From Mayamaea pseudoterrestris (taxonomy: Eukaryota), in contig BROI01000005.1 in assembly GCA_027923505.1 (NCBI GenBank), positions 620,001 to 684,000 of the forward strand: a stretch of 64,000 nt of DNA, given 5' to 3'. Shown here piece by piece: positions 1-64,000 of this stretch. The position numbers and the translations under genes were made by a program. The notes beneath the pieces were generated by a model that saw nothing but the letters and a program-made list of their open reading frames with translations, was not told the DNA's origin and did no database searches. Position 1 is the stretch's first letter. Every line of letters begins with the position of its first letter.

Positions 1-2
1 AA

Positions 3-998
3 CGGACCGAGCGGAAGATTGAGTCTCATTACAATGGATCGCAGTATGGCGATGGTATCTACACCTGCGACGATGGGCTTTCGTACCGCAACACGTACGG
101 ACCGGTATGCTTGCTCGTTGCGCGACTCAAGGGAGCCACTGACACTGTCGTTTCAAACGCTACCTATGCGGCGGGAAGGCTCGTTGTGTTGCGCACGTGC
201 GAGCAATGTGTTCCGATTCTACAGTTTACGCTGGAGCCGAATGCCCTCATTCACAAGTATCACGACGATATTCAAGCTTTGATTGACCAGTTTTTCAACG
301 TTGACTGTGTTGCGGCGCCTGTCGCTGTTTCGCGTAACAAGACTTTATATTACACTGCGCCGGACGTGTTTGACGCTGGCGCCTTGGCAAAGATTACGAG
401 CATTTCGGCCAAGAAAATCTGCGCGACGGACGATTGCTGCGTCATTTGCCATGAGCTGCTCGAGTCCCAACAAGTTGGTCAGCTCCAGGGATGTGGACAT
501 TGCCAGTTCCACTATGAGTGCATTGTCGAGGCAGTTGGCCACTCGAGCCGCTGTCCCTTGTGCTCCAAGAACCTTGTGGAACCCCAAGGCACAATGCCAA
601 CGGGAGAGATGCGTATCACGATTCAGTCTACTTTGACCTGCGGAGGATATGCTCTTGGTACTATCCAGATTGATTACATTTTGGAAAGTGGCGTCCAAAA
701 GGTATATCACGCCAGCCCAGGAGTTGCGTTTGAAGGAACGCGACGCACAGCCTTTTTGCCTGACAATATTGAAGGCCAGCTCTTGTTGAAGCGTCTCGAA
801 TATGCGTTTCTCCATGGACTCACGTTTACGGTCGGCACTTCACTGACGACGGGCAAGACGAACAGCATTGTTTGGGCTTCGATTCATCACAAGACGGCAC
901 CCCTGGGCGGTTCTTTTGGCTTTCCCGACCCGAACTATTTCTGGAACTGCAACGAAGAGCTTGATCACTTGGGTGTGCCTTCCGCTCTGTATTTGTAG
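3..998 (+). CDS. PARP-like ART domain + RING-H2 + Deltex C-terminal (DTC) protein, copy 1 (5'-truncated by window edge)
   Basis: The frame is open from nt 3 (RTERKIESHYNGSQYGDGIYTC...YGPVCLLVARLKG). RING CVIC...CGHCQFHYEC...CPLC. DTC motifs RTAFLPD, AF..GLTFTVGTS.TTG, IHHKT, FGFPDPNY..C.EEL..LGV. Confidence 0.88.
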   Translation, partial: RTERKIESHYNGSQYGDGIYTCDDGLSYRNTYGPVCLLVARLKGATDTVVSNATYAAGRLVVLRTCEQCVPILQFTLEPNALIHKYHDDIQALIDQFFNVDCVAAPVAVSRNKTLYYTAPDVFDAGALAKITSISAKKICATDDCCVICHELLESQQVGQLQGCGHCQFHYECIVEAVGHSSRCPLCSKNLVEPQGTMPTGEMRITIQSTLTCGGYALGTIQIDYILESGVQKVYHASPGVAFEGTRRTAFLPDNIEGQLLLKRLEYAFLHGLTFTVGTSLTTGKTNSIVWASIHHKTAPLGGSFGFPDPNYFWNCNEELDHLGVPSALYL

Positions 999-1370
999 AC
1001 TTGCTGCAAATCTTTCGTGCTGAATGCGGATAGTACAGTTTATTGCTGCCTGAAATTGTGTATTTTGATAGCGTCGACAAATGTTGCATTCTTATAGAAT
1101 CAGACTTTCGATACAACTAAATTGCCTATGCCACGAACTATAGCATCATTAATCTTGGATACCATATTCCCATATATATTGTCGTTTGCATAGGCGAGAT
1201 TCGTTTAAGGATTTGGCGAGCGTTTCATTTAGCTACGTGCAACTCGTCTAGCCTGAACCTTAACGATCACGGTTTCCCGCAAAAATTTGAGCGAGCGAAA
1301 CCGACCTGCTTGCTTTCGCCATGGTTCACGACCGGACGCACATTCTGCGTTTGTCCGTTCACACTCCACC

Positions 1371-3125
1371 ATGATGCAGCATCTACAGGACTGTGTAGCG
1401 TCTTTCATTGACAGTGTGGAGCATCTGTTTGCGGAGACGCTCTACGTTGGATTTGTCATGTTTGTCGCGTGGAAACAGCTCCTTCGTCTTGGATTGTTCG
1501 TATTGAACCGTTTGCGAGACATGAGTGATACGACTGTTCCCAACGATCATGGCGATGGTAAACAGAACGTAAATAGTGATGAAGACAATGAAGAGCAGGA
1601 AGTAGATGAAAGAGACCGCGAAGCAGAAGTAGCGCAGCAACTGGAGGATGACCGCTTATTTGCCGAATCCTTGCAAGCAAAATTCGAGAACGAGAGCAAG
1701 ATGGAAGCGGAAAAACTAATGTTTTGCTCACCAAAGGGAAAGGCATGGAAATTTGTGGATGCTGTTATTCAGCTGCACAATTCATGTGAGCAGTACAATC
1801 TTCAACAGACTTCTGGTGTTCCCACGGGTGTCACGACTGTTGCTATCGACGACTTGGTATTTCTTGTCGTGCGAATGCTTGCCAAGCAGAAGGAGTTCAA
1901 GTCTTTGAGTATTTGCAGCCATGTGGACATTGGTTTCCATTGGACTAGGCACGAAAACATGAAGCGCATAAGAACCGACGGGCTTTTGACTTTCAAGGAA
2001 CGATCGAAGCGTCAGATTCATGCAAAGCATAATGGCTCCACCTACGGAGATGGCGTTTACACCAGCGACTTGCATACATCGCATAAGGATTTTGGCCCTG
2101 TCTGTCTCCTTGTCGCCCGACTTAAAGGAGCTACGTCAAATGTTGTTTCGGATTCGACGACGTATGAACAGAGCCCAATGGTCGTTTTGCGCTCCTCGGC
2201 GCAAGTCGTGCCGCTGATCCAATTCACCACAGCATCAGACAACCTTGTTCACCAGTACAAGTCCCGTCTCCAGGCTTTGATTGACATTTTCATCAATGCT
2301 CCAATAGTGCCGGCTGGTATAGGAAAGAAGATCAGCCTGCACGGTAATATGGCTGGACAGTCTCCCGCCACAGCGTCACCGTTCAATGGCGCCGTCGGTT
2401 TCTTCAATAATGCCGCTCCCGTCCAGGCTGCTCCCATCCAGGCTCTCGCACAAGTTCCGATTGTCACTACGATCCACTATGATGCACCCCACTCGCTTGG
2501 TGACAGTGCTCGCGATTTTATCACGACGATTTCGGCGGGCGCGATGTCCTTTTCAAGTAGCGACTGCGCTATTTGTCTCAATCCTTTGAATGCTACAGAC
2601 GTCGGGCAAGTCAAGACTTGCGGCCATGAATTTCACCTTGCGTGTGTTCACAATGCGATTGCGCATTCAAGTCGATGTCCTCTGTGCAATAAGAACATTG
2701 TCGAGCCTCAGGGCAAGATGCCATCAGGCGACATGGTATATCGAACATGGCATAACGTTTCTTGCACAGGTTTCGCGCACGCTGGTACGATTGAAATCAA
2801 CTACTCCATTCCGAGTGGCATTCAAGAGGAGTATCACAGTAGTCCCGGAAGTCACTTTCTGGGAGCGGTACGCATTGCGTATCTACCGGACGTTAGCGAA
2901 GGTCGATTCCTTTTGAAGCGGCTCGTCTACGCTTTTGAGCACGGGCTAACATTTACGATTGGCACATCGCTGAGCACGGGACAGCTGAACGTTGTGACCT
3001 GGGCGTCGATTCATCACAAGACGAGCAGATCTGGTGGCGCCCATGGATTCCCAGACAATAGCTACTTTTGGAACTGCAACGATGAACTTGACGCGTTGGG
3101 AGTTCCGCGGGCCGACATGTTGTAG
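1371..3125 (+). CDS. PARP-like ART + RING-H2 + DTC protein, copy 2, with N-terminal hydrophobic segment and UIM/MIU-like helix
   Basis: First ATG at 1371. ART-like DIGFHWT..NMKRIRTDGL and NGSTYGDGVYTSD; RING CAIC...CGHEFHLAC...CPLC; DTC RIAYLPD...IHHKT...HGFPD. The start could instead be 1521. Confidence 0.88.
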   Translation: MMQHLQDCVASFIDSVEHLFAETLYVGFVMFVAWKQLLRLGLFVLNRLRDMSDTTVPNDHGDGKQNVNSDEDNEEQEVDERDREAEVAQQLEDDRLFAESLQAKFENESKMEAEKLMFCSPKGKAWKFVDAVIQLHNSCEQYNLQQTSGVPTGVTTVAIDDLVFLVVRMLAKQKEFKSLSICSHVDIGFHWTRHENMKRIRTDGLLTFKERSKRQIHAKHNGSTYGDGVYTSDLHTSHKDFGPVCLLVARLKGATSNVVSDSTTYEQSPMVVLRSSAQVVPLIQFTTASDNLVHQYKSRLQALIDIFINAPIVPAGIGKKISLHGNMAGQSPATASPFNGAVGFFNNAAPVQAAPIQALAQVPIVTTIHYDAPHSLGDSARDFITTISAGAMSFSSSDCAICLNPLNATDVGQVKTCGHEFHLACVHNAIAHSSRCPLCNKNIVEPQGKMPSGDMVYRTWHNVSCTGFAHAGTIEINYSIPSGIQEEYHSSPGSHFLGAVRIAYLPDVSEGRFLLKRLVYAFEHGLTFTIGTSLSTGQLNVVTWASIHHKTSRSGGAHGFPDNSYFWNCNDELDALGVPRADML

Positions 3126-3781
3126 CTTTCTGGCACTAGACGGTACTACAAGTGGGAATGTTTTAAAATCGCAAGAAAGAGTCGAAAGCTAAGATACAGC
3201 GTTCAATTACGTAATCTTATAGCACGACTTATCCTCTTCGTCATTAATGCTCCATACGGCGACGGTCGAATTGTCATAATGACGCTAGCGCCAATCCTTC
3301 CACTGTGGCGGAGCGGATAGCTAGTTTTGTCACCGCTACGACATTTTTAAATTTAAATTTTAGTCGACGCGCAATAGCAAATTCCGAAGATCCCGCCGTC
3401 GTTTTTGGACCGCGGACAATTTCTTGTACGATGAGCACAGAACACAGAGAGTCTGCTGTCTGAACAATTTGTTTTTGGCAATGACAAGAGTATAGTCATT
3501 TCATATTTGTTACTAAAGTGGCCGACTCCGATGTGCCGATGTCGCACCTCGATGGAGATGGAGACTTTCGCACCAGCACGTGAAGCCGTTCGCCTTGGCT
3601 TTCGCATTAAGCCATGCGCTGCGACATCCAGTTGAGCGTGAACGAAAATTCGCAACGAAGAGGCAACTTTAAGCGTTGAGATTTCCAAGGAGCGAGCGTT
3701 TCGGTTTTCAAGTCAATCGACTTGCGAAGCAAAAAATAACAGCATTGTTTTGCTGCAGCTGAACGACAAACACGACAAGCC

Positions 3782-5044
3782 ATGGCATCTTCGGCACAGG
3801 ACAAGGCCAAGACGTTCGTTCAAGCAGTCTCAGATCATCATGAATCGCTTAAGCAGGCTAATGGAACAAGCGCTGCGGCATCACCCCAAATCATGGCGAC
3901 AAATCTGTCCCAGTTTGTCGAGCGCCTGCTTGCGAAGCAAGAGGAGTTTAAGGCCATGAATGTGTGCAGCCAGATTGACATTGGCTTCCATTGGACGCAG
4001 ATAGGACACGTACATAGCATTGATACGCATGGCTTGCTGACTTTACAAGAACGTATCGCGAAAGGCATTCAGTCGAAATTTAATGGCTCGGGGTGGGGTG
4101 ACGGCATTTACACTTCCGATGACCACCGTCAATGTAGCAATCAGGCGTATGGGCCAGTCTGTTTACTGGTCGCTCGACTCAAGGGTGTGACTTCAGCTGA
4201 CCCAAACCTGCTGAGCGCTACCTACGCTCAGGCTCCTTATGTAGTGCTGCGGTGTTCGGATCAGTGTGTACCGATTTTGCGATTTGATGCCACGCCGGAT
4301 GCTATTATTCACCAGTATCAAGCTGGTATACATAATCTGATAGACGCTCACCTCAACAGGGTGAAATCTCAAGCTTCTATTGACAAGTGTCTATATTACA
4401 CGGCTCCGGAAGTTTTGAACGATGGTGCCTTGGATAAAATCATTATGATACCAGATACGCCCAAACATTTGACAGATGATTGTGTCATTTGCCTGCACGC
4501 CCTCGGAACGAAGGAAATTGGGCAAATCGAGGGATGTGGGCATCGGTTTCATTGGGCATGCATCATTGAAGCAACGTCATATTCGACGCGGTGTCCCTTG
4601 TGCACAACCGCCATTGTTGAACCACAAGGCAAAATGCCTTCGGGTCAGATGACAGTCCAGCGCCGACGCGACATGACATGTGAAGGCTACGGGCCCGGCT
4701 CCATTCAGATTGATTATCGTCTAGATGGTGGTGTCCAGAAGTTGTATCACGGTAACCCTGGGGTTGCTTTCCAGGGTACAACGCGTACAGCCTACTTGCC
4801 GGATACTACGGAAGGACTTCTTTTGCTCAAGCGGCTCGAGTACGCGTTCAACCACGGTCTCACCTTTACCGTAGGTACCTCGGTGACCCAAGGCACACCA
4901 AACGTTGTAACGTGGACGTCGATTCATCACAAGACGTCACCCACGGGAGGGACGGCATCCTATGGCTTTCCAGACGATGGCTACTTTTTCAATTGCAACG
5001 AAGAGCTGGATAACTTGGGTGTCCCTTCGGCTGATTTATTGTGA
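3782..5044 (+). CDS. PARP-like ART + RING-H2 + DTC protein, copy 3
   Basis: DIGFHWT...IDTHGL, NGSGWGDGIYTSD, YGPVCLLVARLKG; RING CVIC...CGHRFHWAC...CPLC; DTC RTAYLPD...IHHKT...YGFPD...EEL. Confidence 0.9.
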   Translation: MASSAQDKAKTFVQAVSDHHESLKQANGTSAAASPQIMATNLSQFVERLLAKQEEFKAMNVCSQIDIGFHWTQIGHVHSIDTHGLLTLQERIAKGIQSKFNGSGWGDGIYTSDDHRQCSNQAYGPVCLLVARLKGVTSADPNLLSATYAQAPYVVLRCSDQCVPILRFDATPDAIIHQYQAGIHNLIDAHLNRVKSQASIDKCLYYTAPEVLNDGALDKIIMIPDTPKHLTDDCVICLHALGTKEIGQIEGCGHRFHWACIIEATSYSTRCPLCTTAIVEPQGKMPSGQMTVQRRRDMTCEGYGPGSIQIDYRLDGGVQKLYHGNPGVAFQGTTRTAYLPDTTEGLLLLKRLEYAFNHGLTFTVGTSVTQGTPNVVTWTSIHHKTSPTGGTASYGFPDDGYFFNCNEELDNLGVPSADLL

Positions 5045-5407
5045 TGAACAGCGTTGGAATGCACTACTTACATTGTAAACTTTATACTATGTGTATGTAT
5101 ACAATGCGTTCGCAACCAACGGTACGAACTGCTCTACTGATGGATAAAAGATAACACACAGCATGTGGACTTGTACCGGTAGTCTAAATTTACTAACATG
5201 TAAACTGTAAACATCATTGTCTAACTCACCATGACTACTTTTTGTTGCGCAAACAGCATTGCTTTGTTAGCGGCAAGCATTGGAAGGATTCTACCTTGTC
5301 GCAAATCCGACTGATCGCTAATTCAATCGTGGTCGTGATCGTCGTACCGGTTTTACAGATGGTTTGCTGTGCTTCGCATTTGAAACGCGCAGCCGCCACC
5401 CTTCACC

Positions 5408-6613
5408 ATGGCGCAAAACATCCGCTTCGTAATACATCCACTGGAAAGCAGCAAGACGCTTGTCTACCATAGTCAAGCAAGCAGCATAGTAGAGGCTGAA
5501 TTCACTGTTTGCAAATCTGAGGAAAGCATGAGTCTTGAAATCAACGAGATGAGCAAAGAAGCAGTCGCCAGCATGGAACGGATACAATCAGCTGATGAAT
5601 CCATATCCTCCGACTCCATGACATCTCCAACGCTATCCGACCTTGGCATGTATCTCAGTAGACCAGAAACGACATCAACGACAAGTAGCTTATTCGACAA
5701 GACAGCCATGGCCGTTCCCGTCGCTGCCATTAAGGCGCTATTGGGCGTCGTGCAGCGCAGCCAGGCCGAAACCATGATGGGTTTGCAGGACGAGCTCCGC
5801 CACGCCACGACGGAAATCTTGTCCAACACTTCGTTGCGCAAACGCCGATCGCAGATTGCGCTGCAGAGTGGATGCGAACTCTTTCTCAAGTACATTACGC
5901 GCACCTTTTTGGAACTGCCAAACTTTGACGAGTGTCGCAAGCAAGTGTTGCAGCGGGGCGAGCGCTTTCACACCATTTCGCTCGCGGCGCGGGATCGCAT
6001 CGTTGCGCAGGCGCAAGAGTTTGTCAAGGGAACGGTACTGACGCACGGATGGAGTCGCGTCGTGGCGGCGATACTGCTGGAGGCGAGTCAGACCAAGCAG
6101 TTTGATTTGATTGTCTTGGAGGGTCGACCCGATTTGAGCGGCGCCAAGGCGGCAGCTAGTTACGCGCAGGAAACTAACATACCCGTTCGAGTCATTACCG
6201 ACGCGGCCATGGCCTATGTTATGGAAAAGGTGGACATGGTGCTTGTTGGAGCGGAAGGAGTGCTGGAGAATGGCGGTGTTGTCAACAAGATTGGAACTTA
6301 TGCACTGGCGACTTGCGCCAAGGCACATAGCAAGCCATTCTACGTGGCAGCAGAGTCGTACAAGTTTGCCCGACTCTATCCATTGAGTCAGTCGGATGTT
6401 CCGCAAAGCTCGGTCAATAGTGCGCCCATGGAATTTTTGACGGCACAAGATGGGGACGGAAAGGTTGCCAAGATTGAAATGCCGAAGAATGTAGAGCTGG
6501 TTAATCCAATGACCGACTTTACGCCGTCCAACTACATTACGCTGCTCTTTACTGATCTTGGTGTTTTGACGCCGAGCGCTGTTTCTGATGAACTCATTCG
6601 ATTGTATCAGTAA
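5408..6613 (+). CDS. EIF2B1: Translation initiation factor eIF2B alpha subunit
   Basis: AMAVPVAAIKALL, ETMMGL, SGCELF, VLTHGWSRVV, VLVGAEGVLENGGVVNKIGT, AESYKFARLYPL, LLFTDLGVLTPSAVSDELIRLY. Start uncertain (5408, 5528 or later). Confidence 0.93.
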   Translation: MAQNIRFVIHPLESSKTLVYHSQASSIVEAEFTVCKSEESMSLEINEMSKEAVASMERIQSADESISSDSMTSPTLSDLGMYLSRPETTSTTSSLFDKTAMAVPVAAIKALLGVVQRSQAETMMGLQDELRHATTEILSNTSLRKRRSQIALQSGCELFLKYITRTFLELPNFDECRKQVLQRGERFHTISLAARDRIVAQAQEFVKGTVLTHGWSRVVAAILLEASQTKQFDLIVLEGRPDLSGAKAAASYAQETNIPVRVITDAAMAYVMEKVDMVLVGAEGVLENGGVVNKIGTYALATCAKAHSKPFYVAAESYKFARLYPLSQSDVPQSSVNSAPMEFLTAQDGDGKVAKIEMPKNVELVNPMTDFTPSNYITLLFTDLGVLTPSAVSDELIRLYQ

Positions 6614-6702
6614 ATGCTTGAACGAGTGAACTATGTACGCGCGTGGTGGAGGATAAAATCATGTCTCTAATTGTAATTTAACCTTTCAACATGTCTGTTC
6701 AA

Positions 6703-9700
6703 CTACAACTCATCATCAAACGACGTATAAACCTCTTCTTGAGCATCGTCCATTGAGTCAAAGTGATGCGTAATTTCTTCAATTTCACGAAAGAGCTGGA
6801 GCACAATCGCTGCAAAGATTGGAACCAAAAAGAGGACCAGCCAAAGCAGCATGCGATTTCCTCGCTTCTTGCCATTCTTGTTGTCAATGCCGGCAAAGCT
6901 GCAGGGATCTTCACTAACGGGAATGAGGCGCATCAAGAAGCCAACCGGCAAGGACATGGCGCCCATGGCAACCGTCAATCGCCACTCCTGCCAGCTAAGC
7001 TTGTATGTTTGCGTAAAATCTCCTCCAAACTCGACAATGCAGAATTGTGCCACTACGGTAAAGAGAATGACGAGCAGAAACGTGGGACTCCGAGAGAGTG
7101 ATCGAATAGGGTCAAATCGGTCGCCAATTTCACGAGCGTTGAACTCGTTAAAGACTTGGCAAAACACAAAGGCATTGAAGACTATTGTAAAGTGGTGCCG
7201 CGAGCCATCCTCGCACTTAAACATTCGCGGGCCCTCCTTCAACAAGAACACCAAGAGCGACAATTGGTAGATTGCTTGGCAGATAATGTTGCGCCACATG
7301 GGACGACTGATCAAACTGGCGTCACGTCGGTATGGGCGGCGCTCGAGCAACTCTGGCAACGGCGGTTCTGTTCCAAGCGCCAAAGCACCCATTGTATCCA
7401 TAATCAAGTTCACCCAAAGCATCATGACAGCGTTTAGAGGAGGCTGGTATCCAACGACAGCGGCCATGAAGGTAATTGTTAACGCGACAACGTTAACCGT
7501 AAGCTGAAACTGTAGAAACTTGCGAATATTGTCAAACACGGAACGTCCCCAAAGAACAGCTTTGACAATTGACGAGAAACGATCGTCCATAATGATAATG
7601 TCAGACGCCTTCTTGGCAACGTCGGTGCCGCTCAGGCCCATGGATAGACCCACATCGGCAGCCTTTAATGCTGGCGCATCATTTGTTCCATCGCCAGTTA
7701 CTCCAACGACTTCACCAACACCGCCTCGGCTGACATCCCATTCCTGCTTATATCCAGGGAGCAACATATCCTTTTGCGTCTCATAGTCGCATCCAGGATG
7801 AGCTTCCATCCACGCTTCCCTGGTCTCCGGCAAAAGCCGTCCAGTCAATCGTTGCACCAGCGTATGCTTGTCATCAGGACTAGACCGGGCCAACACTTGT
7901 AGGCGAGGAAGAATCTCGTCAAGTTGGGCAGGGCTGAGTTTTCGGAAGTCTTCGCCAATCATCGCGAGGCCGTCTATGAAGAGCAATAGAAGTACGGTGA
8001 GAAAGATACTCAGCTAAACAGTATCAACTTCATTAAATATCTTCAGCATCATACCTTTTGTCAAAATACCAGCTTGCTTGGCAATAGCAACTGCCGTGTC
8101 CAGGTTATCGCCAGTGACCATGCGAACAAAGATTCCCGATCGTTGGCAATTTGCGACGGCTTCAATCACATCCTCGCGAAGTGGATCCATAATGCCAGCC
8201 AACGCGTCAAAGCAAAGGTTGCGCTCCAACTTGTTTTCAATGTCCTTTATGGTGCAATTAGCAGGGTCCAAAACGTTCTGCACGTTGCTGCGATGAGCCA
8301 ACGCAACACACCTTAAGGCATCGTTTGCAAAGTCCTTGAGAATGGCTTCAAATTCCGCACGCTTTTGTGCCGTGAGTGGCTTTTCGGATCCATCAATATC
8401 CAAAAACGTAGTGCAACTAGCGAGTACAAGCTCCGCTGCTCCCTTGTGGTACAGAGTCCACTTGACGGAACGGGGATCGTCGGAATGAGTCTTGACCAAT
8501 ACCGACATGCGCTTGCGCTGACTCGAAAATGGCAGCAAGCGACTACCACCCGCTTCTCCAAACCGCGCCGACTCGCGACGCACGTCCGTGTCATCAAAGC
8601 GACCCCAGGCCGACTGCGCCAAGAGCAGCAAGGCTGCCTCGGTCTTGTTTCCAATCATTTGCGGTCGAACATCCTGCAGCTCGTTCGTTGACGAAGGTTC
8701 AACGTGAGCAATCTTGGCCGTCGAGCACATGCTAATGCAATTGAGAATAACGTCAAAAGCCTTGGCACTGACAAGCATGGGAACGCGATTGACGCAGTCG
8801 TCGCAAAGTGTATCGGCAAAGACACCTCGAACGACAGTCATTCGATTTTCCGTCAATGTCCCTGCAAGAGCAACGGTAAACGATATCGGTGAGACGAAGC
8901 AACTATGACTATTGCTCTACTCAGACAAACTTTTGCAAAGCTTACCAGTCTTGTCCGAGCAAATGTTTGTAGCGTTTCCCATTGTTTCACAGGCTGACAA
9001 GTGGCGAATCAAGTTTTGATCCGCCAACATTTTCTTGGTAGAAAATGCGAGCGAAATTGTCACTGCCAGCGGCAAGCCTTCCGGAACCGCCACCACGACA
9101 ATGGTGACTCCAATGATGAACGCCTCGAGCGCATACGACAAGACGGAAACGTGATGCAAGTACGGCGGATCAACGATAATCTTGATGGACATCATGGCGA
9201 CAAAGGTCGCTCCTGCCGCCGCCATGCCAATGTATCCAATCATGGCAGCCATGTCATCGAGTTTCTCCTGCAGCGGCGTCTGTCCCTGCTCCTTGTCCAA
9301 GTGACTCTTAATGATACCCCACTGCGAGTCCTTGCCGACGGCAATGGCCAAAAAGACTCCATTCCCCGCTTCCGCCGTACATCCACTCAAAACAAACGGA
9401 TCATTATCCAAATCCTTATCAATATCGACAGGCTCTCCCGTCAGCGCCGACTCATCAACTTGCAACCCATCCGCCTTGATCAAGACTCCATCACACGGAA
9501 TTTCGTCACCCGCCTCAATACACACCAAGTCACCAACCACAATCTCCGTCGACGGCACTTGCCAGTGCAGTCCGTTTCTCATGACCACCACATCCATCTG
9601 ATCGTTGACAGCCGACAATTCCCGAAACTGCGACTCCTTTTGGTAGTCGTTGAGCGCCGTCACCACACTGACAATCGACACGGCCGCCAGTATGGCGCAG

Positions 9701-10188
9701 CCTTCCACGTAGCCCGCCGTCGGATCGTCGTACATGCCAATCGCCAAACTAATGAGAGCGGCAATGATCAGTATGCGCAAGGTGGCGTCGTCAAAGGTTT
9801 GCAGGAGCAACTCGTAAAAGGTGGCGCGGCTTGGAGCGACTAATTCGTTGCAGCCCAGCAAGGAGCGGCGGACTGGCACGGAGGCAACGTCAATGCCGCG
9901 CGTCAAATCGACTTGGAGTGCCTTGGCGAGACCAGCTTGGTTGTCATACTGGTTTTGGAGACTATGCAAATTCGACGAGAGTGACTGCGCCTGGTTCATG
10001 CTTTGAATCATGATGCGGAGATTCGCAGCGTCCTGTTCCAGTTTGGATGCATCGGTAGTAATGACGCTGCTGCTACTGGAAGCCGCAGCTTTGGAAACAT
10101 TGGAAGATGATGATGATGCACCAAACATGCTGCTAGTGCTTCCGATTGGATCAAGTAGTAGTAGCAAGGCACTGTCCTCCTCTGACAT
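6703..10188 (-). CDS. P-type Ca2+-ATPase, type IIB (PMCA/ACA-like); 3 exons: 10188-8946, 8861-8055, 7973-6703
   Basis: DESALTGE, VVAVPEGLPLAVT, CSDKTG|TLT (rejoined across GT-AG intron 8945-8862), KGAAE, MVTGDN, VTGDGTNDAPALK, LWVNLIMDT. Second intron 8054-7974 restores the frame. Confidence 0.93.
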
Positions 10189-10607
10189 GTATGGAAACAC
10201 AAGTGCAATGCAAAACTGCTTGCTCTTGTGGTTACGTTGGGGGTTGTTCCAAACGGCGAGAGCCGTTGGCCGAGGGACGCGTGGACATTTTTCATCGCAG
10301 CGGCACTGAAATGGGAAAAACACGTGCATCATGAAAAGAAGCTCGGCTTGCGCGCCGAATGACTCGTCGGGCTTCGCTTCCCGACGAGTGACTTTCTCGA
10401 ATGACCATGGCGCGCACATATACCGCGGTCAATGGCATTACTTGGTCATTTCATTGCCAGGGTTTGCATCGCTGGCCTTGAGAGTTACGTCGACTAACGA
10501 TAGGATATCGTCGACTGTGCAGCTTGTTTTTCGCATTTTAGAGTATTCAGCAGCGAGCTGTTCGTTTCAATTGTTCGTTCCGTCGCACGCAAGCAACAAA
10601 CAAGAAC

Positions 10608-24162: not shown

Positions 24163-25959
24163 ATGGCCGTCTCCTACACCAGCAAGTCAATACACTCGTA
24201 TTCGTTGGCAGCATTGCTGCTGCTACTGTGGTCGTCACTAAATTCGCATTGCTCTATATCATTCTTCGCTCATTCACTATCAATTAGCACTAGCAACAAC
24301 ATGCCCGGCCGCGTCGTGGTCGTTGGATCGGCCAACCAAGACTTGACCACCTACACGCCAACCTTGCCCGAGATGGGAGCCACCGTCTTGGGAGAATCGT
24401 TTGAAACATCCTGCGGCGGCAAGGGTGCCAACCAGGCGTGCGCGGCCGCTTGCCTCGGTATGGCGCCCGTGAGCATGATTCTTAAAGTTGGCAGTGGCAA
24501 GAATGAAAATAGTGACAATGAGAATAGTAGCAATGACGAAGCATCCAATAATACACCCGACGTCTTTGGCAGGAACTTGTTGCATCACTTGGAGCAAGTG
24601 GGCGTCGAGGTGGACAAGACGGCGTGCGTGGTTTCCAACGAATCATCCGGCGTTGCCGCCATTACCGTGGACACGACTTCGGGCGATAACATGATTATAG
24701 TCTCGCCCGGCGCCAACTTTTTCTTGACGCCAAATGATGTTGAAGTAGCGTTGAAGAAACTGGCGTCGGAAAAAACACCAGTTTCCGTCGTGCTGGTGCA
24801 GCTGGAGATAAGACCCGAGACGGCATTGCAGGCACTGAAAACGGGCAAGGAGCTTGGCGCCATTACCATACTAAACCCGGCACCGGCGCCGGAGGGATAT
24901 TCGCTCGACGACTTTTTGCCCTACACGGATATTTTAATTCCAAACGAAACGGAGCTGCGCGCCATTTGCGGTGAACCAGCCGACTCCGACAAAAATGAAG
25001 CGGAAATTGCGTCGCAGTTGATGAAGCAAGGCGTGGGGCGCGCCTTGGTGGTGACGCTGGGAGCGCGGGGTGTCATGACGATTGAAAAACAAAATGACAA
25101 TGACAATGACTCGCACGTGGTGAGCATGGTGGATGCACCAGATGACTTGCCGGCCCGGTCCGAGCCAATCAAGGATACGATTGGCGCGGGCGACGGCTTT
25201 TGCGGCGCCCTGTCCACCTATCTGGCCATGGGCCTATCGCTGCCAGAGGCGGCGCAAAAGGCGTGCGGCGTGGCAAGCATGTCGGTGCGACGACAAGGTG
25301 CGTCCTATCCAACGTGGGACGAGCTGCCAGACTCGTTGAAAGTTGGTGCGGGACCATCAGGAGGTTCGGCAAAGAAATTTAAAATTATATTCGTCACGGG
25401 CAACAAAAAGAAGTTGGAGGAGGTGCAACAAATACTCGGCAGTGACTTGGAGGCTAGCTATGACATTACGAGTCACAAGGTTGACTTGCCGGAGCTGCAA
25501 GGCGACCCGGTGGCAATTGCCAAGGAAAAGTGTATGATTGCCGCCAAGGAGATTGGCGGCGCATGCTTGACGGAAGACACCTCCCTTTGCTTCAATGCTT
25601 TGAATGGCATGCCGGGGCCTTACATCAAGTGGTTCCTTGAGAGCTGCGGCCACGATGGCTTGAACGCCATGCTAACTGGGTTCGACGACAATACAGCGTA
25701 TGCGCAAACTGTTGTAGCGTTTACCAAAGGACCAGGCAAGGAAGTCTATGTGTTTGACGGTAGAACGGACGGCAAGATTGTTCCGGCGCGAGGATCACTA
25801 GACTTTGGCTGGGATCCAATCTTTGAGCCGCTGGAAGGTGACGGCAAGACGTACGCGGAGATGAATAAGAGCGACAAGAATGCGATTAGCCACCGTGGCC
25901 GATCCTTTGCCAAACTCAAGACCTTTTTGCTCGATAATGCTTCAAACCACGTGAGTTAA
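24163..25959 (+). CDS. Ribokinase (PfkB family) - inosine triphosphate pyrophosphatase (Ham1/ITPA) fusion
   Basis: VVVVGSANQDL, GGKGANQA, LNPAPA, PNETE, VTLGARG, DTIGAGDGF, then linker GAGPSGGS and FVTGNKKKLEE, LPELQG, EDTSL, PGPYIKWF, FGWDPIF, SHRGRSF. Alternative start at 24301. Confidence 0.93.
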   Translation: MAVSYTSKSIHSYSLAALLLLLWSSLNSHCSISFFAHSLSISTSNNMPGRVVVVGSANQDLTTYTPTLPEMGATVLGESFETSCGGKGANQACAAACLGMAPVSMILKVGSGKNENSDNENSSNDEASNNTPDVFGRNLLHHLEQVGVEVDKTACVVSNESSGVAAITVDTTSGDNMIIVSPGANFFLTPNDVEVALKKLASEKTPVSVVLVQLEIRPETALQALKTGKELGAITILNPAPAPEGYSLDDFLPYTDILIPNETELRAICGEPADSDKNEAEIASQLMKQGVGRALVVTLGARGVMTIEKQNDNDNDSHVVSMVDAPDDLPARSEPIKDTIGAGDGFCGALSTYLAMGLSLPEAAQKACGVASMSVRRQGASYPTWDELPDSLKVGAGPSGGSAKKFKIIFVTGNKKKLEEVQQILGSDLEASYDITSHKVDLPELQGDPVAIAKEKCMIAAKEIGGACLTEDTSLCFNALNGMPGPYIKWFLESCGHDGLNAMLTGFDDNTAYAQTVVAFTKGPGKEVYVFDGRTDGKIVPARGSLDFGWDPIFEPLEGDGKTYAEMNKSDKNAISHRGRSFAKLKTFLLDNASNHVS

Positions 25960-42429: not shown

Positions 42430-45400
42430 ATGTCCCCCAAAACTCGAAACCAGCGCCGCGCTAAAGCTCAGTTTGCGCGCATCATGCGAGAGCGAACCGT
42501 GGAACGGATTCTAGAGGAGGAACAAGCCAAGCAGCAACAAAAGCAATACTTGGAGGGAGTCAATCAGAAGCGAGATGAACGCTTGACGAAAACAGTGTTC
42601 GTTGCAAATGTGAGGGATTTAGACGTCGAATACAATTTTCAAACGTTGCGGTCCTTCATCGAAACAAACTACGGTCCGTTGGAAGTGTACACCAAGGAAC
42701 GATGGGGCAGATCGCGTGGTGGACAAAAGTCGTACCCTCGAGCAAGACTTGTCTTTCAGAAAGCAGTTGACGCGCAAAAGCTGTTTGGAGGAACCGTCTT
42801 GGCGCAAGTGAGTGGCCCAGCGCTGATCCGATGCAGCCTTGGTTGCAAGCAGGGAATGATCACAGTGCATGCAGCAAAGCAGCGCTATGCAGATTCTTGG
42901 CGACACGACGAAGCTTTGAAGGGTGAAGTCATTTGCTTTCAAGCCAAGAGTCTGGCGCTCGGACATTATTGTCCAGACGATCATGACATGTATTGGAATA
43001 CAGTAGACGAGGCGCATGAGTTCGATGCTGAGGAATGGGTCGAAGAAATCTGCTTGCGGCAAACATGCCAAGTTCAAGTTGATCTCTTGGAGCGTACGTT
43101 TGAAATCAGCACAGCCTACAAGCCATCGGCAGCGTCTCACAATGATCCCGACGATCTCGCTAAAATTTTTGGCCTTTCAGCATTACTTGCAGATTTTGGC
43201 AATCCCACAGACACTGTCATGAGTTTCAGGTTCAAGGAGCTACGCCATCATATCGAGATTTGCAAAGAAAGTGATGACGCAAAACGGTTGTCGCTCATCT
43301 TTGTGCTCAAACATCCACCAAAAATTGAAAATATTGTACCAGACCTCTGTCTGTCTGGTTTAGACGACAGGGAACCACAGCGGGTCCGGTGCATAAGCTA
43401 CCCTGGCATTGACCGCGCTTTTTTCAATCGATGCCGTGCATTCAAGCTTTCGCTAGATGAATGTAGTCTTAGTCAGCTTTCTCGGCATGAAAGATTCACA
43501 AGACTCTTCGATTTTGGTCTATTGCGCAAGACGTTACGCCCTTACCGCACCGCCATTGATGATTTGATCCACAGTCTTCGCTCCATTGTAATGACCAGCA
43601 AGGAGCTCTGCGCGGGCTTGGCTCGCCTTCACCAATATTTGCGAAAAGTTCATGACACTGACGATCGTGCAGGTAAGCAATCTGGGAGATCTCGTGGTTC
43701 ATAAGTGCAATATTCGCTCATAATATGTTGTAACTTATTGCAGGTATTATTCTACGTGCCGCGCTTGATCAGCGCCGCTTTTCATGGTATCACCTTCTTC
43801 GTGATCAAGATAGCTCTGGTACTCTTTGTGATACGATTATAGACTCTCTTGTACGCGGGAAAGCCATGCAGGTAAGAAATGTCGGGGACGAGGACACGAT
43901 TGTAAATCTGCAATACGTTGCTTATATGCGTCAATCGACAGGTTCTTCGCCGGGTGGTCGACACTGATGGTGGATGTACAAAGCACCCTTTAAAGCTTTA
44001 TCAGACTGTCGCTGCCGAAACTGTAACCGACGCCGAATTGGTTACCAGTATACCCGACTATTGCTTGCAAATACCCAGGCTTTTATTGACACCATGCCAA
44101 GAAACTGTCTTGGGTTACGAGACAGAAATGAGCAACCGAGTTTTGCGAGATTTTGTAAATACCAAAGGATTTTCTCCTAGCTCTTTCATGCGAGCTTCCG
44201 TTGCGGACGAGAATGGACAACAGCTTTTTGGCATAGATCTGTCACGCGAGGTGGAATCGTTGTTTAAAAGCATACTCTTGTCCGGTCTTAAAATAAATGG
44301 GCATACATACCAATTTCTTGCATACTCATCCAGTCAGTTGAAAGAATGCTCGTTGTGGTTAGTGAAGCCGGAAGGCAATTGGACGGTCAAAAGGATGCGT
44401 CATGAATTTGGTGATTTTAGCCATTGCAAGTCAGCCTCTAAATACGCTGCGAGGGTTGGACAATGTTTCTCCACCACGTATAAGTCGATATCGGCTGGCT
44501 ACACGGGCTCGCGCTTTGGTGGTGCACGGCTGCAACATGCACTGATTCCTGACATTCCTGGTCAAGGTCACTTCCTTGAAAAGTTTCATACGGATGGAAC
44601 GGGTGTCATATCGCGAGCTTTAATGGACGAACTTTTGCGACAGGTTCCTTTCGGCCCAAAAGATCCTCGAGACACTTCAATTATCCAGATTCGTTACGGC
44701 GGAGCGAAAGGAACGTTGACTGCCTGGGACGCACCAACTATGACGAAATTGCTTGGCAGATCCGGTATGGACGTATTACTACGCGAATCAATGATCAAGT
44801 TCGATACTGCGTACGAGGAAATTGAAATCTGTGCCGTCGGCAAAAGCATTCCTTACTATTTGAACCGCAATGTAATTTTGATATTGAGCTGCTTGGGCAT
44901 TTCGGATGTGAATTTCCTAAATATTCAACGGAAAATGCTTGACGACCTTGATGCCATGCTTGTCTCATCTGACAAAGCACGAGAGTTGCTACCACGACTT
45001 TTAGGACCCGACACTACTATCAGATCTGTTTTACATGACATGCTGTCATCCGGACTTGAGCCCCAAGATGAGCCCTTTCTCTTTTCGTGTCTTCATGCGA
45101 TAAGGTCGCATCATCTATTTGCTCTCAGAAAGAAAACTCGCATTTTTGTGGCAGATGGCGCGGTTCTGAGGGGTGGAATTGACGAATCTGGAATGTTGCC
45201 TGAAGGGTGCGTCTATGTCCACCGCGCCCAGTGCCGGGAGCCCGGCGCCTCGGGCGACGAAGGCGTTGTTCTTGGTCCAGTCTTAGTGACGAAGCACCCT
45301 GTCATGCATGTTGGAGACGTTCGAATGCTTTGTGCTGTCAATGTTCCGGCCCTCCGTCACCATCGAAACATCATCCTGTTTAGCCAAAAAGGCATACGAC

Positions 45401-46626
45401 CAGAGCCAGATAAGATGGCTGGTAGCGATCTTGATGGTGACGAATTCGCTGTTACGTGGGATGCTAGACTTTTTTTACGGGGCTGGGATACAATCCCGGC
45501 TCCTTGTCCCAGTGACTCATTGAGCGTTTGTGCTTCTTATGCAATGCAACTTCAATGCTTTAATCAAGCGCCTCTGGACTATGCAGATCCTACCGGGACA
45601 CCTCCGGAATTTCCAAATGAATTTGAAGCTCAAAACCAAGCTCTGGTCGAGCATTTCATAAAGCATGCCAAAACAAACAATTTGGGCCGAATCGCTATGC
45701 TATGGCAAGATCATGCATCGCGAAGTGGCGCCAATTGCAGCCAGTGCCACGAACTTGCTAGATTGCATAGTATAGCAGTCGATTTTCCAAAGTCTGGGAT
45801 TCCCGCCTCACTTCCCGACAGTTTGCTTTTAAAACGCGACCAGGAGCGGGCTCATTGGCGCGAGCAAAAGCGGTATCCCGTGTTTATCTGCCAAAATGTC
45901 GTCGGTCGGCTCTACGATGAAGTCATCCGCCGAGATGTAACAGACAGAAGCATGAAGGCACTGAAAGCGTTTGCAGGGCGGGACTCGAATCGTTATGGGC
46001 AGATCCTTCCTTATTGCAGCCGTCGCGATTCCATGCAACAACTTGAAGCAGTGTATGACTCATCCATCCCCACTCTACTTGGTTTTAACGATGAAAATGA
46101 TGCACTCCTCACAATCGGCAGCGAGCACTACGAGTGGTATGAAGAAGAAGTCGCCAGTTTGGTAAACCGTTTCAAAATTAATTGTGAAGGTGAACTGACA
46201 ACTGGATGCATCCGCAAACTGCATAAGCTGCATCGACGCAGAGAGCACGAGGTCTCGGAAGAGATACGTCGCACTTTGAGACAGATTCGTATTGATTATC
46301 GAAGACGCTTTGCGGCTTCTGTTCTTCGCCTTATAGAAGTTTGTACCACTTGGCATGAAGGCGATGCATTGGAGGCGGGTTACTCCGAAGATCTTATCGA
46401 CTCAGTTTTTGAAATAGCGACGAGCAAATCAGCCAATCATTTTGATGCCAAGCAGTTAATGCTCAGACAGACTGCTTTTCGATTGGCTGCGGCGTACTAC
46501 ATTGTCGCTTATTCGCTTGATTGGCGAGAGCAAGGGAATAGGATTTCTGTTCGCTTCGGCTTTCCATGGGTCGTTTGCTCTGATGTCATCTACGCCGGAT
46601 TATTGGAAGCCTCTCATCGCAACTAA
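42430..46626 (+). CDS. RDR: Cellular RNA-dependent RNA polymerase (RNA silencing), with N-terminal RRM-like domain; exons 42430-43672, 43744-43871, 43942-46626
   Basis: SNRVLR, FLAYSSSQLK, KYAARVGQCFS, TDGTG, QIRYGGAKG, KHPVMHVGDVR, MAGSDLDGDEFAVTWD, LHSIAVDFPKSG, FGFPW. Two GT-AG introns join the two ORF-track segments. Confidence 0.93.
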
Positions 46627-62222: not shown

Positions 62223-64000
62223 ATGGGTGTTCCAAAGGTGAGTGGAATTGCAGTCGCGATGGCTGATGACAAATCCATGACTGTCACTTTGCTCAATCCA
62301 ACGGATCTCTCTCTCCTACTTAATTCTCTTGCATTCCAGTTTTACCGCTGGATCTCGGAGCGCTACCCCAAAATTAATCAGCTCATTAGCGACAATGCCT
62401 TATTGCCCGAGATTGATCACTTGTACTTGGATTTGAACGGCATTATCCACGGCTGCACGCACCCCTCCGACCGCGATGTTTCCGACATTTTATCGGAACG
62501 CGAAATGATGCTTGGCATTATGAACTACCTTGATCGTCTCGTCACGCAGATTGCCAAACCAAAAGTATCCGTCTACATGGCGATTGACGGAGTGGCGCCA
62601 CGCGCCAAGCTCAACCAGCAGCGGTCCCGACGCTTTCGCAGTGCCAAGGACATGGCCGAAGCCACCAAGGACTTGCCCAAGGATGCCAAGGGCAATGTTG
62701 CGCAAGTCTTTGATTCAAACTGCATTACGCCTGGAACTGAGTTTCTCGACAAGGTTTCCAAAGTCATTCAATACTTTATTCGCAAAAAGATCAAGGAGGA
62801 TGTATTGTGGCGCAACTTGACTGTCATTTTTTCCGGTCACGACGTTCCAGGCGAGGGCGAGCACAAGATTATGCAGCACATTCGCGAAATGCGCTCGCAG
62901 CCGAGCTACCAGCCGAATACGCGCCACTGCATCTACGGACAGGATGCCGACTTGATCATGCTGGGGTTGGTGACGCATGAACCGCATTTTGTCATTTTGC
63001 GTGAAGTGGTTGACTTTAACAGTTTTGCAAGACAAACGAACACGTTAAAGGCGGTCAAGAAGTTTACCAAGCAGAGTGACTTTCAGTTACTGCACTTGTC
63101 AGTCTTGCGCGAGTATTTGGAAATGGAGTTTTGCTACAAGCAGCCGGAATATGATTTGGAGCGCTGCATTGACGATTTTGTATTCATGACGTTTTTGGTG
63201 GGAAACGACTTTTTGCCGCACATGCCGACGCTTGACATTGGAGATGGAGCGTTTGACTTGCTCTTTGATTTGTATCGCGAGCAGCGGCAAACGTGGAATG
63301 GAGAGTACTTGACGTCGTCGGGCAAGATTAGTGATGCGGTTCGGTTGGAAAACTTTTTGGCGGCGATTGGAGAAGCCGAGTCTGACATTCTGGCGGACCG
63401 TGAGGATAAGGATGCTGCAATGCGAAAGAAACGACGTCGCTTTGACAAGCGCTCGGGAACGCCCAGTGAAGCGGAGCTCAAGCATCAAGAGATGAGCAAG
63501 CAGACTGATTTCATGACTATGATTGACGATATGATGGCCAGGGCAGACTTGTGCGATGACGACTTTGTGTCCGGCTGGATGCCATCAGAAGAGGGCGACG
63601 GAAAGGATTTCAAGGGACGCTATTACTACGAGAAGCTTAAGCTTACTCCTTTGGACAAGGATGCGCATTGGCATCTTCGCAAGTCGTACATGGAAGGTCT
63701 CATTTGGTGTCTGGCGTATTATTACGAAGGCTGTATTTCGTGGGGTTGGTTTTATCCGTACCACTACGGACCCATGTTGAGCGATCTTCATGGCTTGCCA
63801 AAGATGTTTAGCGAAATATCATTCGATCAGGGAGCACCTTTAACTCCGTTCATGCAGCTCATGGGTTGCTTGCCACCGGCGTCAGGCATTCTTGTTCCGC
63901 CTCTTTATCGCGGATTAATGATTTCGCCCGACTCGCCAATCATTTCGTTTTATCCTACTGACTTTGAAGTGGATATGAACGGCAAAAAGTAAGTTTATGT
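62223..64000 (+). CDS. XRN1: 5'-3' exoribonuclease XRN1 (5' part; continues beyond window); intron 62238-62339, next intron starts at 63989
   Basis: Spliced MGVPK|FYRWISERYP; DHLYLDLNGIIH, AIDGVAPRAKLNQQRSRRF, FDSNCITPGTEF, VPGEGEHKIM, YGQDADLIML, VGNDFLPH, SWGWFYPYHYGP. Confidence 0.94.

Follow-up and report, generated by a model that had tools for sequence, protein, structure and literature searches.

Fusion of a divergent PARP-like ADP-ribosyltransferase domain with a Deltex RING-DTC module in three neighbouring genes of the diatom Mayamaea pseudoterrestris

The window analysed here is a stretch of 64,000 nucleotides of Mayamaea pseudoterrestris DNA (assembly GCA_027923505.1, contig BROI01000005.1, positions 620,001 to 684,000 of the forward strand). 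Three consecutive open reading frames (ORFs) lie on the + strand at its beginning, and each joins a PARP-like ADP-ribosyltransferase (ART) domain to a RING-H2 finger and a Deltex C-terminal (DTC) domain. The three ORFs, referred to below as copies 1, 2 and 3, are the gene products P0004, P0006 and P0001, which are recorded together on one 1.24-Mb contig. Introns were needed by none of them. Over the shared part, the identity to copy 1 was 53% for copy 2 and 59% for copy 3. An initial annotation, made from the letters alone, had proposed three neighbouring paralogues on the same strand with an N-terminal domain, a RING-H2 and a DTC, and this arrangement was borne out by the ORFs and by Pfam. 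Its motifs and its RING and DTC coordinates were also correct according to the motif search and Pfam.

Copy 3 (3782..5044, + strand, 420 residues) is the shortest form and consists of the ART domain, a linker, the RING-H2 and the DTC. The PARP-like ART domain, delimited with AlphaFold2 (AF2), Foldseek and VIA-align, covers residues 5-192 (3794..4357, +). His70 (nt 3989-3991) lies in the GFHWT motif at 3983-3997, Tyr110 (nt 4109-4111) in the GDG[IV]Y motif at 4097-4111, and the third position of the catalytic triad is occupied by Tyr153 (nt 4238-4240). A family-specific C-terminal helix of the ART domain is found at residues 173-190. The presence of an ART segment had been recognized correctly in the initial annotation, but its extent was drawn too small; the folded domain spans approximately residues 5-192, and the model contains two N-terminal helices and one C-terminal helix beyond the limits given at first. 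The structured linker (residues 202-223, 4385..4450, +) carries the motif YYTAP at nt 4394-4408. Its strands 202-206 and 220-223 were confident in the full-length model of copy 3, and Pro209 of the Y-x-A-P motif was kept in at least 90% of 57 ART-RING-DTC relatives. The RING-H2 follows at 4475..4603 (+; C-x2-C ... C-G-H-x2-H-x2-C ... C-x2-C; zf-RING_2 E 1.7e-9), and the DTC at 4625..5023 (+; Pfam DTC E 2e-41). Five sites of the DTC matched DTX2, all on the + strand: the Arg in RTAYLPD (nt 4784-4804), the Ser in GTSVTQG (4874-4894), the Trp and the His pair in WTSIHHKT (4913-4936), the aromatic Tyr in YGFPD (4961-4975) and the Glu in NEELD (4997-5011).

Copy 1 (3..998, +) is cut at the 5' edge of the window, which holds the C-terminal 331 residues of a 516-residue protein. 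The rear part of the ART domain is located at nt 3-314, with GDG[IV]Y at nt 48-62, and is followed by the YYTAP linker motif (348-362), the RING-H2 (435-563, zf-RING_2 E 2.4e-8) and the DTC (585-977, Pfam DTC E 4e-39), all on the + strand. The His motif had been placed upstream of the window; it is indeed located there, and P0004 has GYHWT in place of GFHWT. In the RING of copy 1 (window 492-521), the two His ligands lie one residue further apart, with CGHCQFH compared with CGHxFH in copies 2 and 3. Copy 2 (1371..3125, +, 584 residues) starts at a first ATG at 1371 in an ORF that is open from a TTG at 1287. A hydrophobic segment and then a charged, probably helical stretch precede its ART domain (nt 1722-2351, +), in which the His lies in GFHWT (1932-1946), the Tyr in GDGVY (2046-2060) and the third triad position, a Met, in PMVVLR (2175-2213). 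The linker from the ART domain to the RING is long and of low complexity and carries a Y/H-Y-x-A-P motif at 2475-2489; the RING-H2 (2562-2690, +, zf-RING_2 E 7.5e-9) and the DTC (2709-3104, +, Pfam DTC E 2.3e-39) complete the protein. The motifs LVARLKG and VVLR...Q.VP were also found in the copies. The hydrophobic opening segment of copy 2 (window 1371-1530), a possible membrane anchor, is shared with the relatives P0007 and P0008, the first residues of which are MGQ, and is lacking in copies 1 and 3. The ART-to-RING stretch of every copy is free of stop codons and frame changes. The catalytic and zinc-binding residues are intact, including all those of the RING-DTC half, despite the missing Glu of the ART triad.

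The fold of the N-terminal domain was evaluated with an AF2 model of residues 1-225 of copy 3, for which an alignment of 150 relatives (alignment A3) served as the input. The model had a predicted local distance difference test score (pLDDT) of 90.4 and a predicted template modelling score (pTM) of 0.83. The Foldseek search of the Protein Data Bank (PDB) gave 86 matches at E<=1e-3, and all the listed rows were PARP-family catalytic domains with a probability of 1.00. PARP10 (E 4e-5) was the first match, followed by PARP15, 14, 13, 12 and tankyrase. The model was also compared with 48,161 representative chains by VIA-align, which is independent of Foldseek. The top matches were PARP10 (Z 13.7, 146 residues, model 14..174), PARP13 (13.2) and PARP15 (13.2), with 134-146 residues aligned. 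Ranks 1-16 and 18 were PARP, tankyrase or pseudo-PARP domains with Z from 13.7 to 8.5, a set that includes RCD1 (11.8), TASOR (11.5), SRO1 (11.4), the tankyrases, PARP1, 4, 3 and 2, and PARP16; rank 17 was taken by a conoid chain from Toxoplasma, the type of which is not stated. The Z values of the class that followed did not exceed 6.7 (6.5 for DarT1, 5.9 for diphtheria toxin). A PARP-type ART fold, including the helices ahead of the first strand, was thus found by both VIA-align and Foldseek. The initial annotation had expected a PARP/ARTD fold from AlphaFold and Foldseek, and that fold was obtained, with PARP catalytic domains ranking first. Each chain carries, ahead of its RING and DTC, a PARP-like ADP-ribosyltransferase domain of divergent sequence, and this architecture and fold can be regarded as nearly certain. 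In the viral structure comparison, the top matches were ordinary PARP domains of giant viruses and phages, which gave no hint of a viral origin.

The Pfam PARP profile (PF00644, cut-off 26.7 bits) gave 12.2 bits (E 0.13) for copy 2 and no match at E<=1 for copies 1 and 3. Relatives were collected because the sequence case for the window copies was weak. Three of 20 long relatives matched the profile at E<=0.01, with scores of 24.3, 16.2 and 15.9 bits that were all sub-threshold, and the matches of the long relatives always fell at profile positions ~27-100. Since the scores lie under the cut-off, the domain is called PARP-like here, a divergent sister family rather than a member of Pfam PARP. 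The N-domain profile was further aligned by hhalign with the Pfam-valid diatom PARP domain of P0248, with a probability of 72.8% and an E value of 3.2e-5 over 133 columns. This value was obtained with the N-domain columns alone, in a rerun of a comparison in which the whole A3 had given a DTC match only. In the ESM Atlas, the top feature match was a PARP cluster at 0.95, and PARP accounted for 16 of 30 matches. At the level of sequence, these sub-threshold and bridging matches lend support to the fold assignment.

The RING-DTC half was recognized directly. The Pfam DTC profile (PF18102, cut-off 25 bits) gave 134.3, 135.0 and 141.7 bits for copies 1-3, and zf-RING_2 gave 34.5-38.2 bits (cut-off 27.3) in all the copies, directly ahead of the DTC. 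When residues 227-420 of copy 3 were compared with the PDB by phmmer, DTX2 was matched with E 8.5e-30, DTX3L with 3.7e-29 and DTX1 with 6e-24. The alignment with DTX2 was ungapped from the last Cys pair of the RING into the DTC, and the RING-DTC linker was equal in length; the length of this linker matters in DTX1 (PMC7500938). The reported contacts of DTX2 with ADP-ribose are R535, S567/S568, W578, H582 and H594 (PMC7442474). R535 corresponds to the Arg of R-x-A-[YF]-L-P-D, S567/S568 to G-T-S, and W578 and H582 to W-x-S-I-H-H-K-T, all of which are kept in the three copies. At the position of H594, copy 1 has Phe, copy 2 His and copy 3 Tyr; in other Deltex proteins this position is aromatic (PMC7500938). 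E608 of DTX2 has been proposed to form with H582 the pair that activates ADP-ribose's 3' hydroxyl (PMC7615817). It corresponds to the Glu of N-[ED]-E-L-D, and in every copy both IHHKT and N[ED]ELD occur and align with DTX2. The E2-binding Ile after the first Cys of the RING (Ile414 of DTX2; PMC7442474) is kept in copy 3. Judged by these residues, nothing of a Deltex module is missing from the RING-DTC half. The AF2 model of full-length copy 3 had a pLDDT of 92.4 and a pTM of 0.65. In Foldseek it matched the RING-DTC of DTX2 bound to ADP-ribose (E 5.9e-17, template modelling (TM) score 0.75) and the DTC of DTX3L (TM 0.92-0.93, root-mean-square deviation 1.5-1.6, 43% identity), and then PARP14, 10 and 15.

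The range of the family was explored by phmmer with residues 1-225 of copy 3 against 1.84 billion representatives. Relatives of the N-domain, counted as clusters, numbered 430 at E<=1e-3 and 223 at E<=1e-10. According to local hidden Markov models, 70 of 161 N-domain proteins also had a DTC. Of the 69 relatives in which the N-domain is followed by 180 residues or more, 60 had the DTC, and the rest were mostly truncated metagenome fragments. With the whole of copy 3 as the query, 44 of the 119 other listed proteins aligned over at least 88% of its length. Named gene models of the full fusion were found in Mayamaea pseudoterrestris, Fistulifera solaris, Chaetoceros tenuissimus, Thalassiosira exigua and Amphora coffeaeformis, and the closest named relatives were raphid pennate diatoms. 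Hence, the fusion is the normal state of a large family, and it is apparently diatom-wide. UIM or TAZ domains were added in some relatives. The public names are 'E3 ubiquitin-protein ligase dtx3l' in Mayamaea pseudoterrestris and 'deltex' in Fistulifera solaris, and generally only 'deltex-like'. In the precomputed Pfam annotation, PF00644 appeared in none of the rows listed for the search with whole copy 3 and in one of the 120 listed rows of RING-DTC relatives, namely P0248. The ART domain is therefore unannotated in the public records covered by these rows, save for P0248. Other domain arrangements were also seen among the relatives. Two to four DTC domains per chain, with no ART domain, occurred in many of them (P0171-P0204 and others), including named proteins of the diatoms Attheya and Pseudo-nitzschia and some fish dtx3l-like proteins. 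P0129, an MMETSP transcript, has two ART domains of the diatom family in tandem and no DTC within 475 residues.

The age of the three copies was examined in a maximum-likelihood tree of 35 N-domains, which comprised the closest matches and four more distant ones, all with near-full domain coverage. Copy 1 grouped with P0005 (support 95/92), copy 2 with P0007 and P0008 (99/95), and copy 3 with P0003, P0002 and others (95/76). Because each copy groups with outside relatives, the triplication predates the split from the carriers of those sequences. As far as this tree indicates, the three copies are old paralogues, although the sources of the grouping sequences could be close relatives. A recent local expansion was rejected on the basis of the tree, in which each copy was nearer to sequences of other sources. 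The suggestion that a local expansion points to a role in defence is accordingly unsupported, as the tree makes the triplication old. In Chaetoceros tenuissimus, P0230 and P0244 (locus tags 06427 and 06426) are adjoining ART-DTC genes on one contig, and a RING-DTC gene (06432) lies near this pair. Since the ART-DTC tags of Chaetoceros are adjacent, the tandem arrangement recurs, also in a centric diatom.

These data are consistent with a single chain that combines an ADP-ribose writer with a Deltex ligase; taken as a whole and including an active writer, the statement stands at an even chance. We infer NAD+ binding, transferase activity, a target, the ubiquitin chemistry and a biological role along the following lines. 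Using NAD+, the ART domain would attach a single ADP-ribose to a substrate or to itself. This ADP-ribose would be bound by the DTC pocket of the same chain, where the Trp and an aromatic residue would stack on the adenine and the Arg and the Ser backbone would hold the diphosphate. The RING would bring E2~ubiquitin, and the DTC together with the RING-bound E2~ubiquitin would esterify the 3' hydroxyl or ubiquitylate the marked protein.

The ART active site was assessed by column counts over the 150 sequences of A3, with the numbering of copy 3. Thr72 and Gly108 were kept in all 150; Gly84, Leu85 and Gly106 in 149; His70, Ile80 and Tyr110 in 148; Gln161 in 145; Arg132 in 144; Asp66 in 140; Gly68 in 139; and Asn76 in 116. 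The spacing H-x-T-x3-N-x3-I-x3-G-L and the motif G-x-G-[IV]-Y parallel what we take to be the PARP signature. The near-invariant His and Tyr speak for a functional NAD+ site. The strand that precedes Q-C-x-P begins with the third triad position, whose placement was based on the motif register, the predicted strand 153-156 and the hhalign comparison with P0248 rather than on a superposed structure. Copy 1 has Leu there, copy 2 Met and copy 3 Tyr. A Glu was found at this position or one residue earlier in 57 of 148 parsable relatives, 20 of which also had a DTC, and in 72 of the other 91 the site eight positions ahead of the conserved Gln held Leu, Met, Val, Ile or Phe. An H-Y-E triad thus seems to be ancestral to the family, and the clade of the window is H-Y-hydrophobic. 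The human PARP variants with H-Y-I or H-Y-L are mono-ADP-ribosyltransferases, and by analogy the H-Y-hydrophobic triad would be of the type of the mono-ADP-ribosylating PARPs. H-Y-I and H-Y-L are both given as triad variants of human PARPs (PMC1266365).

Several observations weigh against a working writer that acts together with the ligase. The Pfam PARP cut-off was reached by no window copy, and the family profile retrieved no PARP chain at E<=10 from all PDB sequences; the sole match outside Deltex in that search was DarT1, over 27 profile positions with E 0.0015. The triad Glu is present in no window copy, and the neighbouring positions hold no acidic residue. The window family has H-[YW]-T, with an aromatic residue where the PARP H-G-S/T has Gly. 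Some PARPs that lack the Glu are inactive, as reported for PARP9 (PMC7500938). In the full-length model, the placement of the ART domain relative to the RING-DTC was not confidently predicted, because the pTM was 0.65.

Because all three window copies lack the catalytic Glu, the domain may be a writer or an NAD+ sensor or pseudo-enzyme. A pseudo-PARP would have the fold and perhaps bind NAD+ or ADP-ribose but carry out no transfer, and it would steer or gate the RING-DTC, serving as reader, NAD+ sensor or scaffold. The RING-DTC would then be the sole enzyme, and the chain would resemble PARP9 beside DTX3L, or PARP13, TASOR or RCD1. This possibility is rather unlikely in our estimate, and it stays alive because the Glu is missing and an aromatic residue replaces the Gly of PARPs. 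It also fits the finding that the RING-DTC of DTX proteins alone acts on NAD+ or ADP-ribose without an active PARP (PMC7500938). Moreover, PARP13 (Z 13.2), RCD1 (11.8), TASOR (11.5) and SRO1 (11.4) are among the top structural matches. However, His70 and Tyr110 each recur in 148 of the 150 sequences and Thr72 in every one of them, and the presumed loss of these residues in the pseudo-PARPs named above counts against such a role for the window domain. The Glu, furthermore, is still found in 57 of 148 relatives, 20 of which have a DTC, and a hydrophobic third residue, typical of active mono-ADP-ribosyltransferases, is named in human PARP variants (PMC1266365).

A modification of nucleic acids is improbable. 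In such a system, the DTC would ubiquitylate the ADP-ribose that the ART domain had placed on DNA or RNA ends, for example as a mark in meiosis or in antiviral responses. The match to DarT1 (E 0.0015; fold Z 6.5) comes from the H-aromatic-T motif together with the helix that follows, and DTX3L ubiquitylates single-stranded nucleic acids (PMC11460948). The PARP fold match is nevertheless far stronger, with Z 13.7 versus 6.5 for DarT, the DarT match spans only 27 profile positions, and Pfam revealed no nucleic-acid-binding domain in any of the three copies. That the fusion is an artefact of ORF reading, with the ART and the RING-DTC as separate products or the genes as decaying duplicates, is hardly credible: the ART-RING linker is poorly conserved, and long in copy 2, but no stop codon or frame change lies between the parts in any copy, the catalytic and zinc-binding residues are intact, the one-chain order recurs in 60 of the 69 relatives that are long enough for it, as well as in named gene models from five diatom genera, and long-term selection on the copies is indicated because each has its own closer relatives elsewhere.

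If the single-chain writer and ligase is extended to the family, a broader proposal can be made, which we advance tentatively and at somewhat less than even odds. The proteins would form a large, diatom lineage-specific family of autonomous dual writers that mono-ADP-ribosylate a target and at once ubiquitylate that ADP-ribose with no partner, which would yield the hybrid ADP-ribose-ubiquitin mark. The paralogues would be differently anchored, as soluble, membrane-tethered and TAZ- or UIM-bearing forms, and would act in sexual reproduction, meiosis or responses to stress or viruses.

The other genes of the window were ordinary nuclear ones and included those for an eIF2B-family protein, a P-type ATPase, a GTPase, a proteasome subunit, an RNA-dependent RNA polymerase, a bromodomain protein and XRN. 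Among these neighbours in the 64-kb window, no gene for a macrodomain, PARG, NUDIX or E2 protein was found. The P-type cation ATPase (6703-10419, -) was distributed over three ORFs, at 6703-7986, 8014-8856 and 8917-10419, which are presumably exons parted by short introns or frame changes. A single ORF at 24163-25959 (+) combined a PfkB-family kinase domain (E 2.2e-46) with a Ham1/ITPase domain (E 3e-51). The eukaryotic RNA-dependent RNA polymerase (PF05183, E 7.5e-133) was located at 43918-46626 (+), and the XRN 5'-3' exonuclease at 62223-63992 (+). Public DNA-like contigs over positions 1-7000 of the window showed many single-base differences, with two contig versions in places (e.g., 1362-1796), which fits two diverged alleles or strains. 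The skips 3146-3247, 4068-4148 and 5048-5236 were considered as introns and rejected, given that the DNA-like runs cross intergenic DNA.

Deltex ligases were shown to bind and ubiquitylate ADP-ribose only from 2020 to 2022, and the pairing of PARPs with Deltex proteins in cells (PARP9, PARP14 and PARP7) is still being worked out. The coupling of ADP-ribosylation and ubiquitylation is an active question. Both modules and their partnership in animals, that of DTX3L with PARP9 and PARP14, were known already; the fusion in one chain appears to be new. The initial annotation had been aware of no characterisation of the architecture, and no description was found in the literature searched. As to whether it is already described and widespread, it is widespread within diatoms, where it has gone unannotated. 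A PARP-DTC fusion was described nowhere in the literature searched, although the review by Aravind et al. (2015) may mention one. Diatoms are listed as lacking PARPs in Table 1 of the 2010 survey by Citarelli et al. (PMC2964712), and the picture of diatoms without PARP-type enzymes is revised by this family. The 'deltex-like' proteins of the public records are predicted to hold an unannotated domain of an enzymatic type. Genes up-regulated during sexual reproduction in four diatoms were reported in a 2025 paper at the level of the Deltex family (PMC12618581), and sexual reproduction in diatoms is a concrete biological setting for testing. The occurrence of the fusion across many diatoms, with old paralogues, offers a separate, evolutionary line of evidence for regarding the two activities as one unit. 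If the reading as writer and ligase is true, the family would be a Rosetta-stone proof of an ancient ART-DTC functional unit and a minimal study system of 420 residues, and so compact a chain suits in vitro tests of the hand-over from writer to ligase.

DarT is far more distant in fold than the PARPs, with Z 6.5 compared with 13.7 for PARP10, and its profile match is short (27 positions, E 0.0015). The Clade 6 PARP-UBCc proteins of fungi and the U-box-Macro-PARP protein of Dictyostelium also hold an ART domain and ubiquitin-system domains in one chain (PMC2964712). Unlike the window proteins, they have an E2-like domain or a U-box instead of a DTC, and because they have no DTC, they lack the module for reading and ubiquitylating ADP-ribose. 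P0248, the gene model of Thalassiosira profunda, resembles the window proteins in that a diatom RING-DTC is joined to a PARP-type domain. The order is reversed, however, with zf-TAZ at 196-262, RING at 319-368, DTC at 385-517 and PARP at 631-687. Its PARP domain scores 33.4 bits, which passes the Pfam cut-off, and has H-G-T. The window N-domain profile did not match P0248 at E<=1e-3 in ordinary hmmsearch, and with all the filters off a stretch of 24 residues was matched with E ~5e-4. If the P0248 gene model is right, a PARP-type domain and a RING-DTC were joined at least twice in diatoms.

PARP10, 14, 15, 13 and 12 are nearest to the window ART domain by fold. PARP10, 14 and 15, which have H-Y-I/L, share the fold over ~146 residues, with the His and Tyr kept and a hydrophobic residue for the Glu. 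They differ in that the identity is 12-17%, that the window proteins have H-[YW]-T versus H-G-S/T, and that an extra conserved C-terminal helix is present in the window. The stretch from the Tyr to the third triad residue is 43 residues in the window versus presumably 68 in PARP10, on the PARP10 numbering that we assume. The RING-H2 and DTC fold, the linker length, the pocket residues and the His-Glu pair are shared with human DTX2 and DTX1 (PDB 6y3j and 6y5p). Unlike DTX1 and DTX2, the window proteins have an ART domain at the N-terminus. The N-termini of DTX1, DTX2 and DTX4 carry WWE domains.

A close parallel is the axis of DTX3L and PARP9, with PARP14, in animals, in which a Deltex RING-DTC works with an ART domain of the macro-PARP clade. 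A preprint on DTX3L-PARP co-evolution (10.64898/2026.04.23.720386) deals with metazoans only, and no such fusion was found reported in it. Outside the diatoms, the window RING-DTC is nearest to fish dtx3l and to coral Macro-RING-DTC proteins. In contrast to DTX3L-PARP9, the window proteins have no macro, KH-like or RRM domains according to Pfam. Animals use two or three polypeptides that are joined via other domains, whereas the ART domain, the RING and the DTC of the window proteins are contained in one chain.

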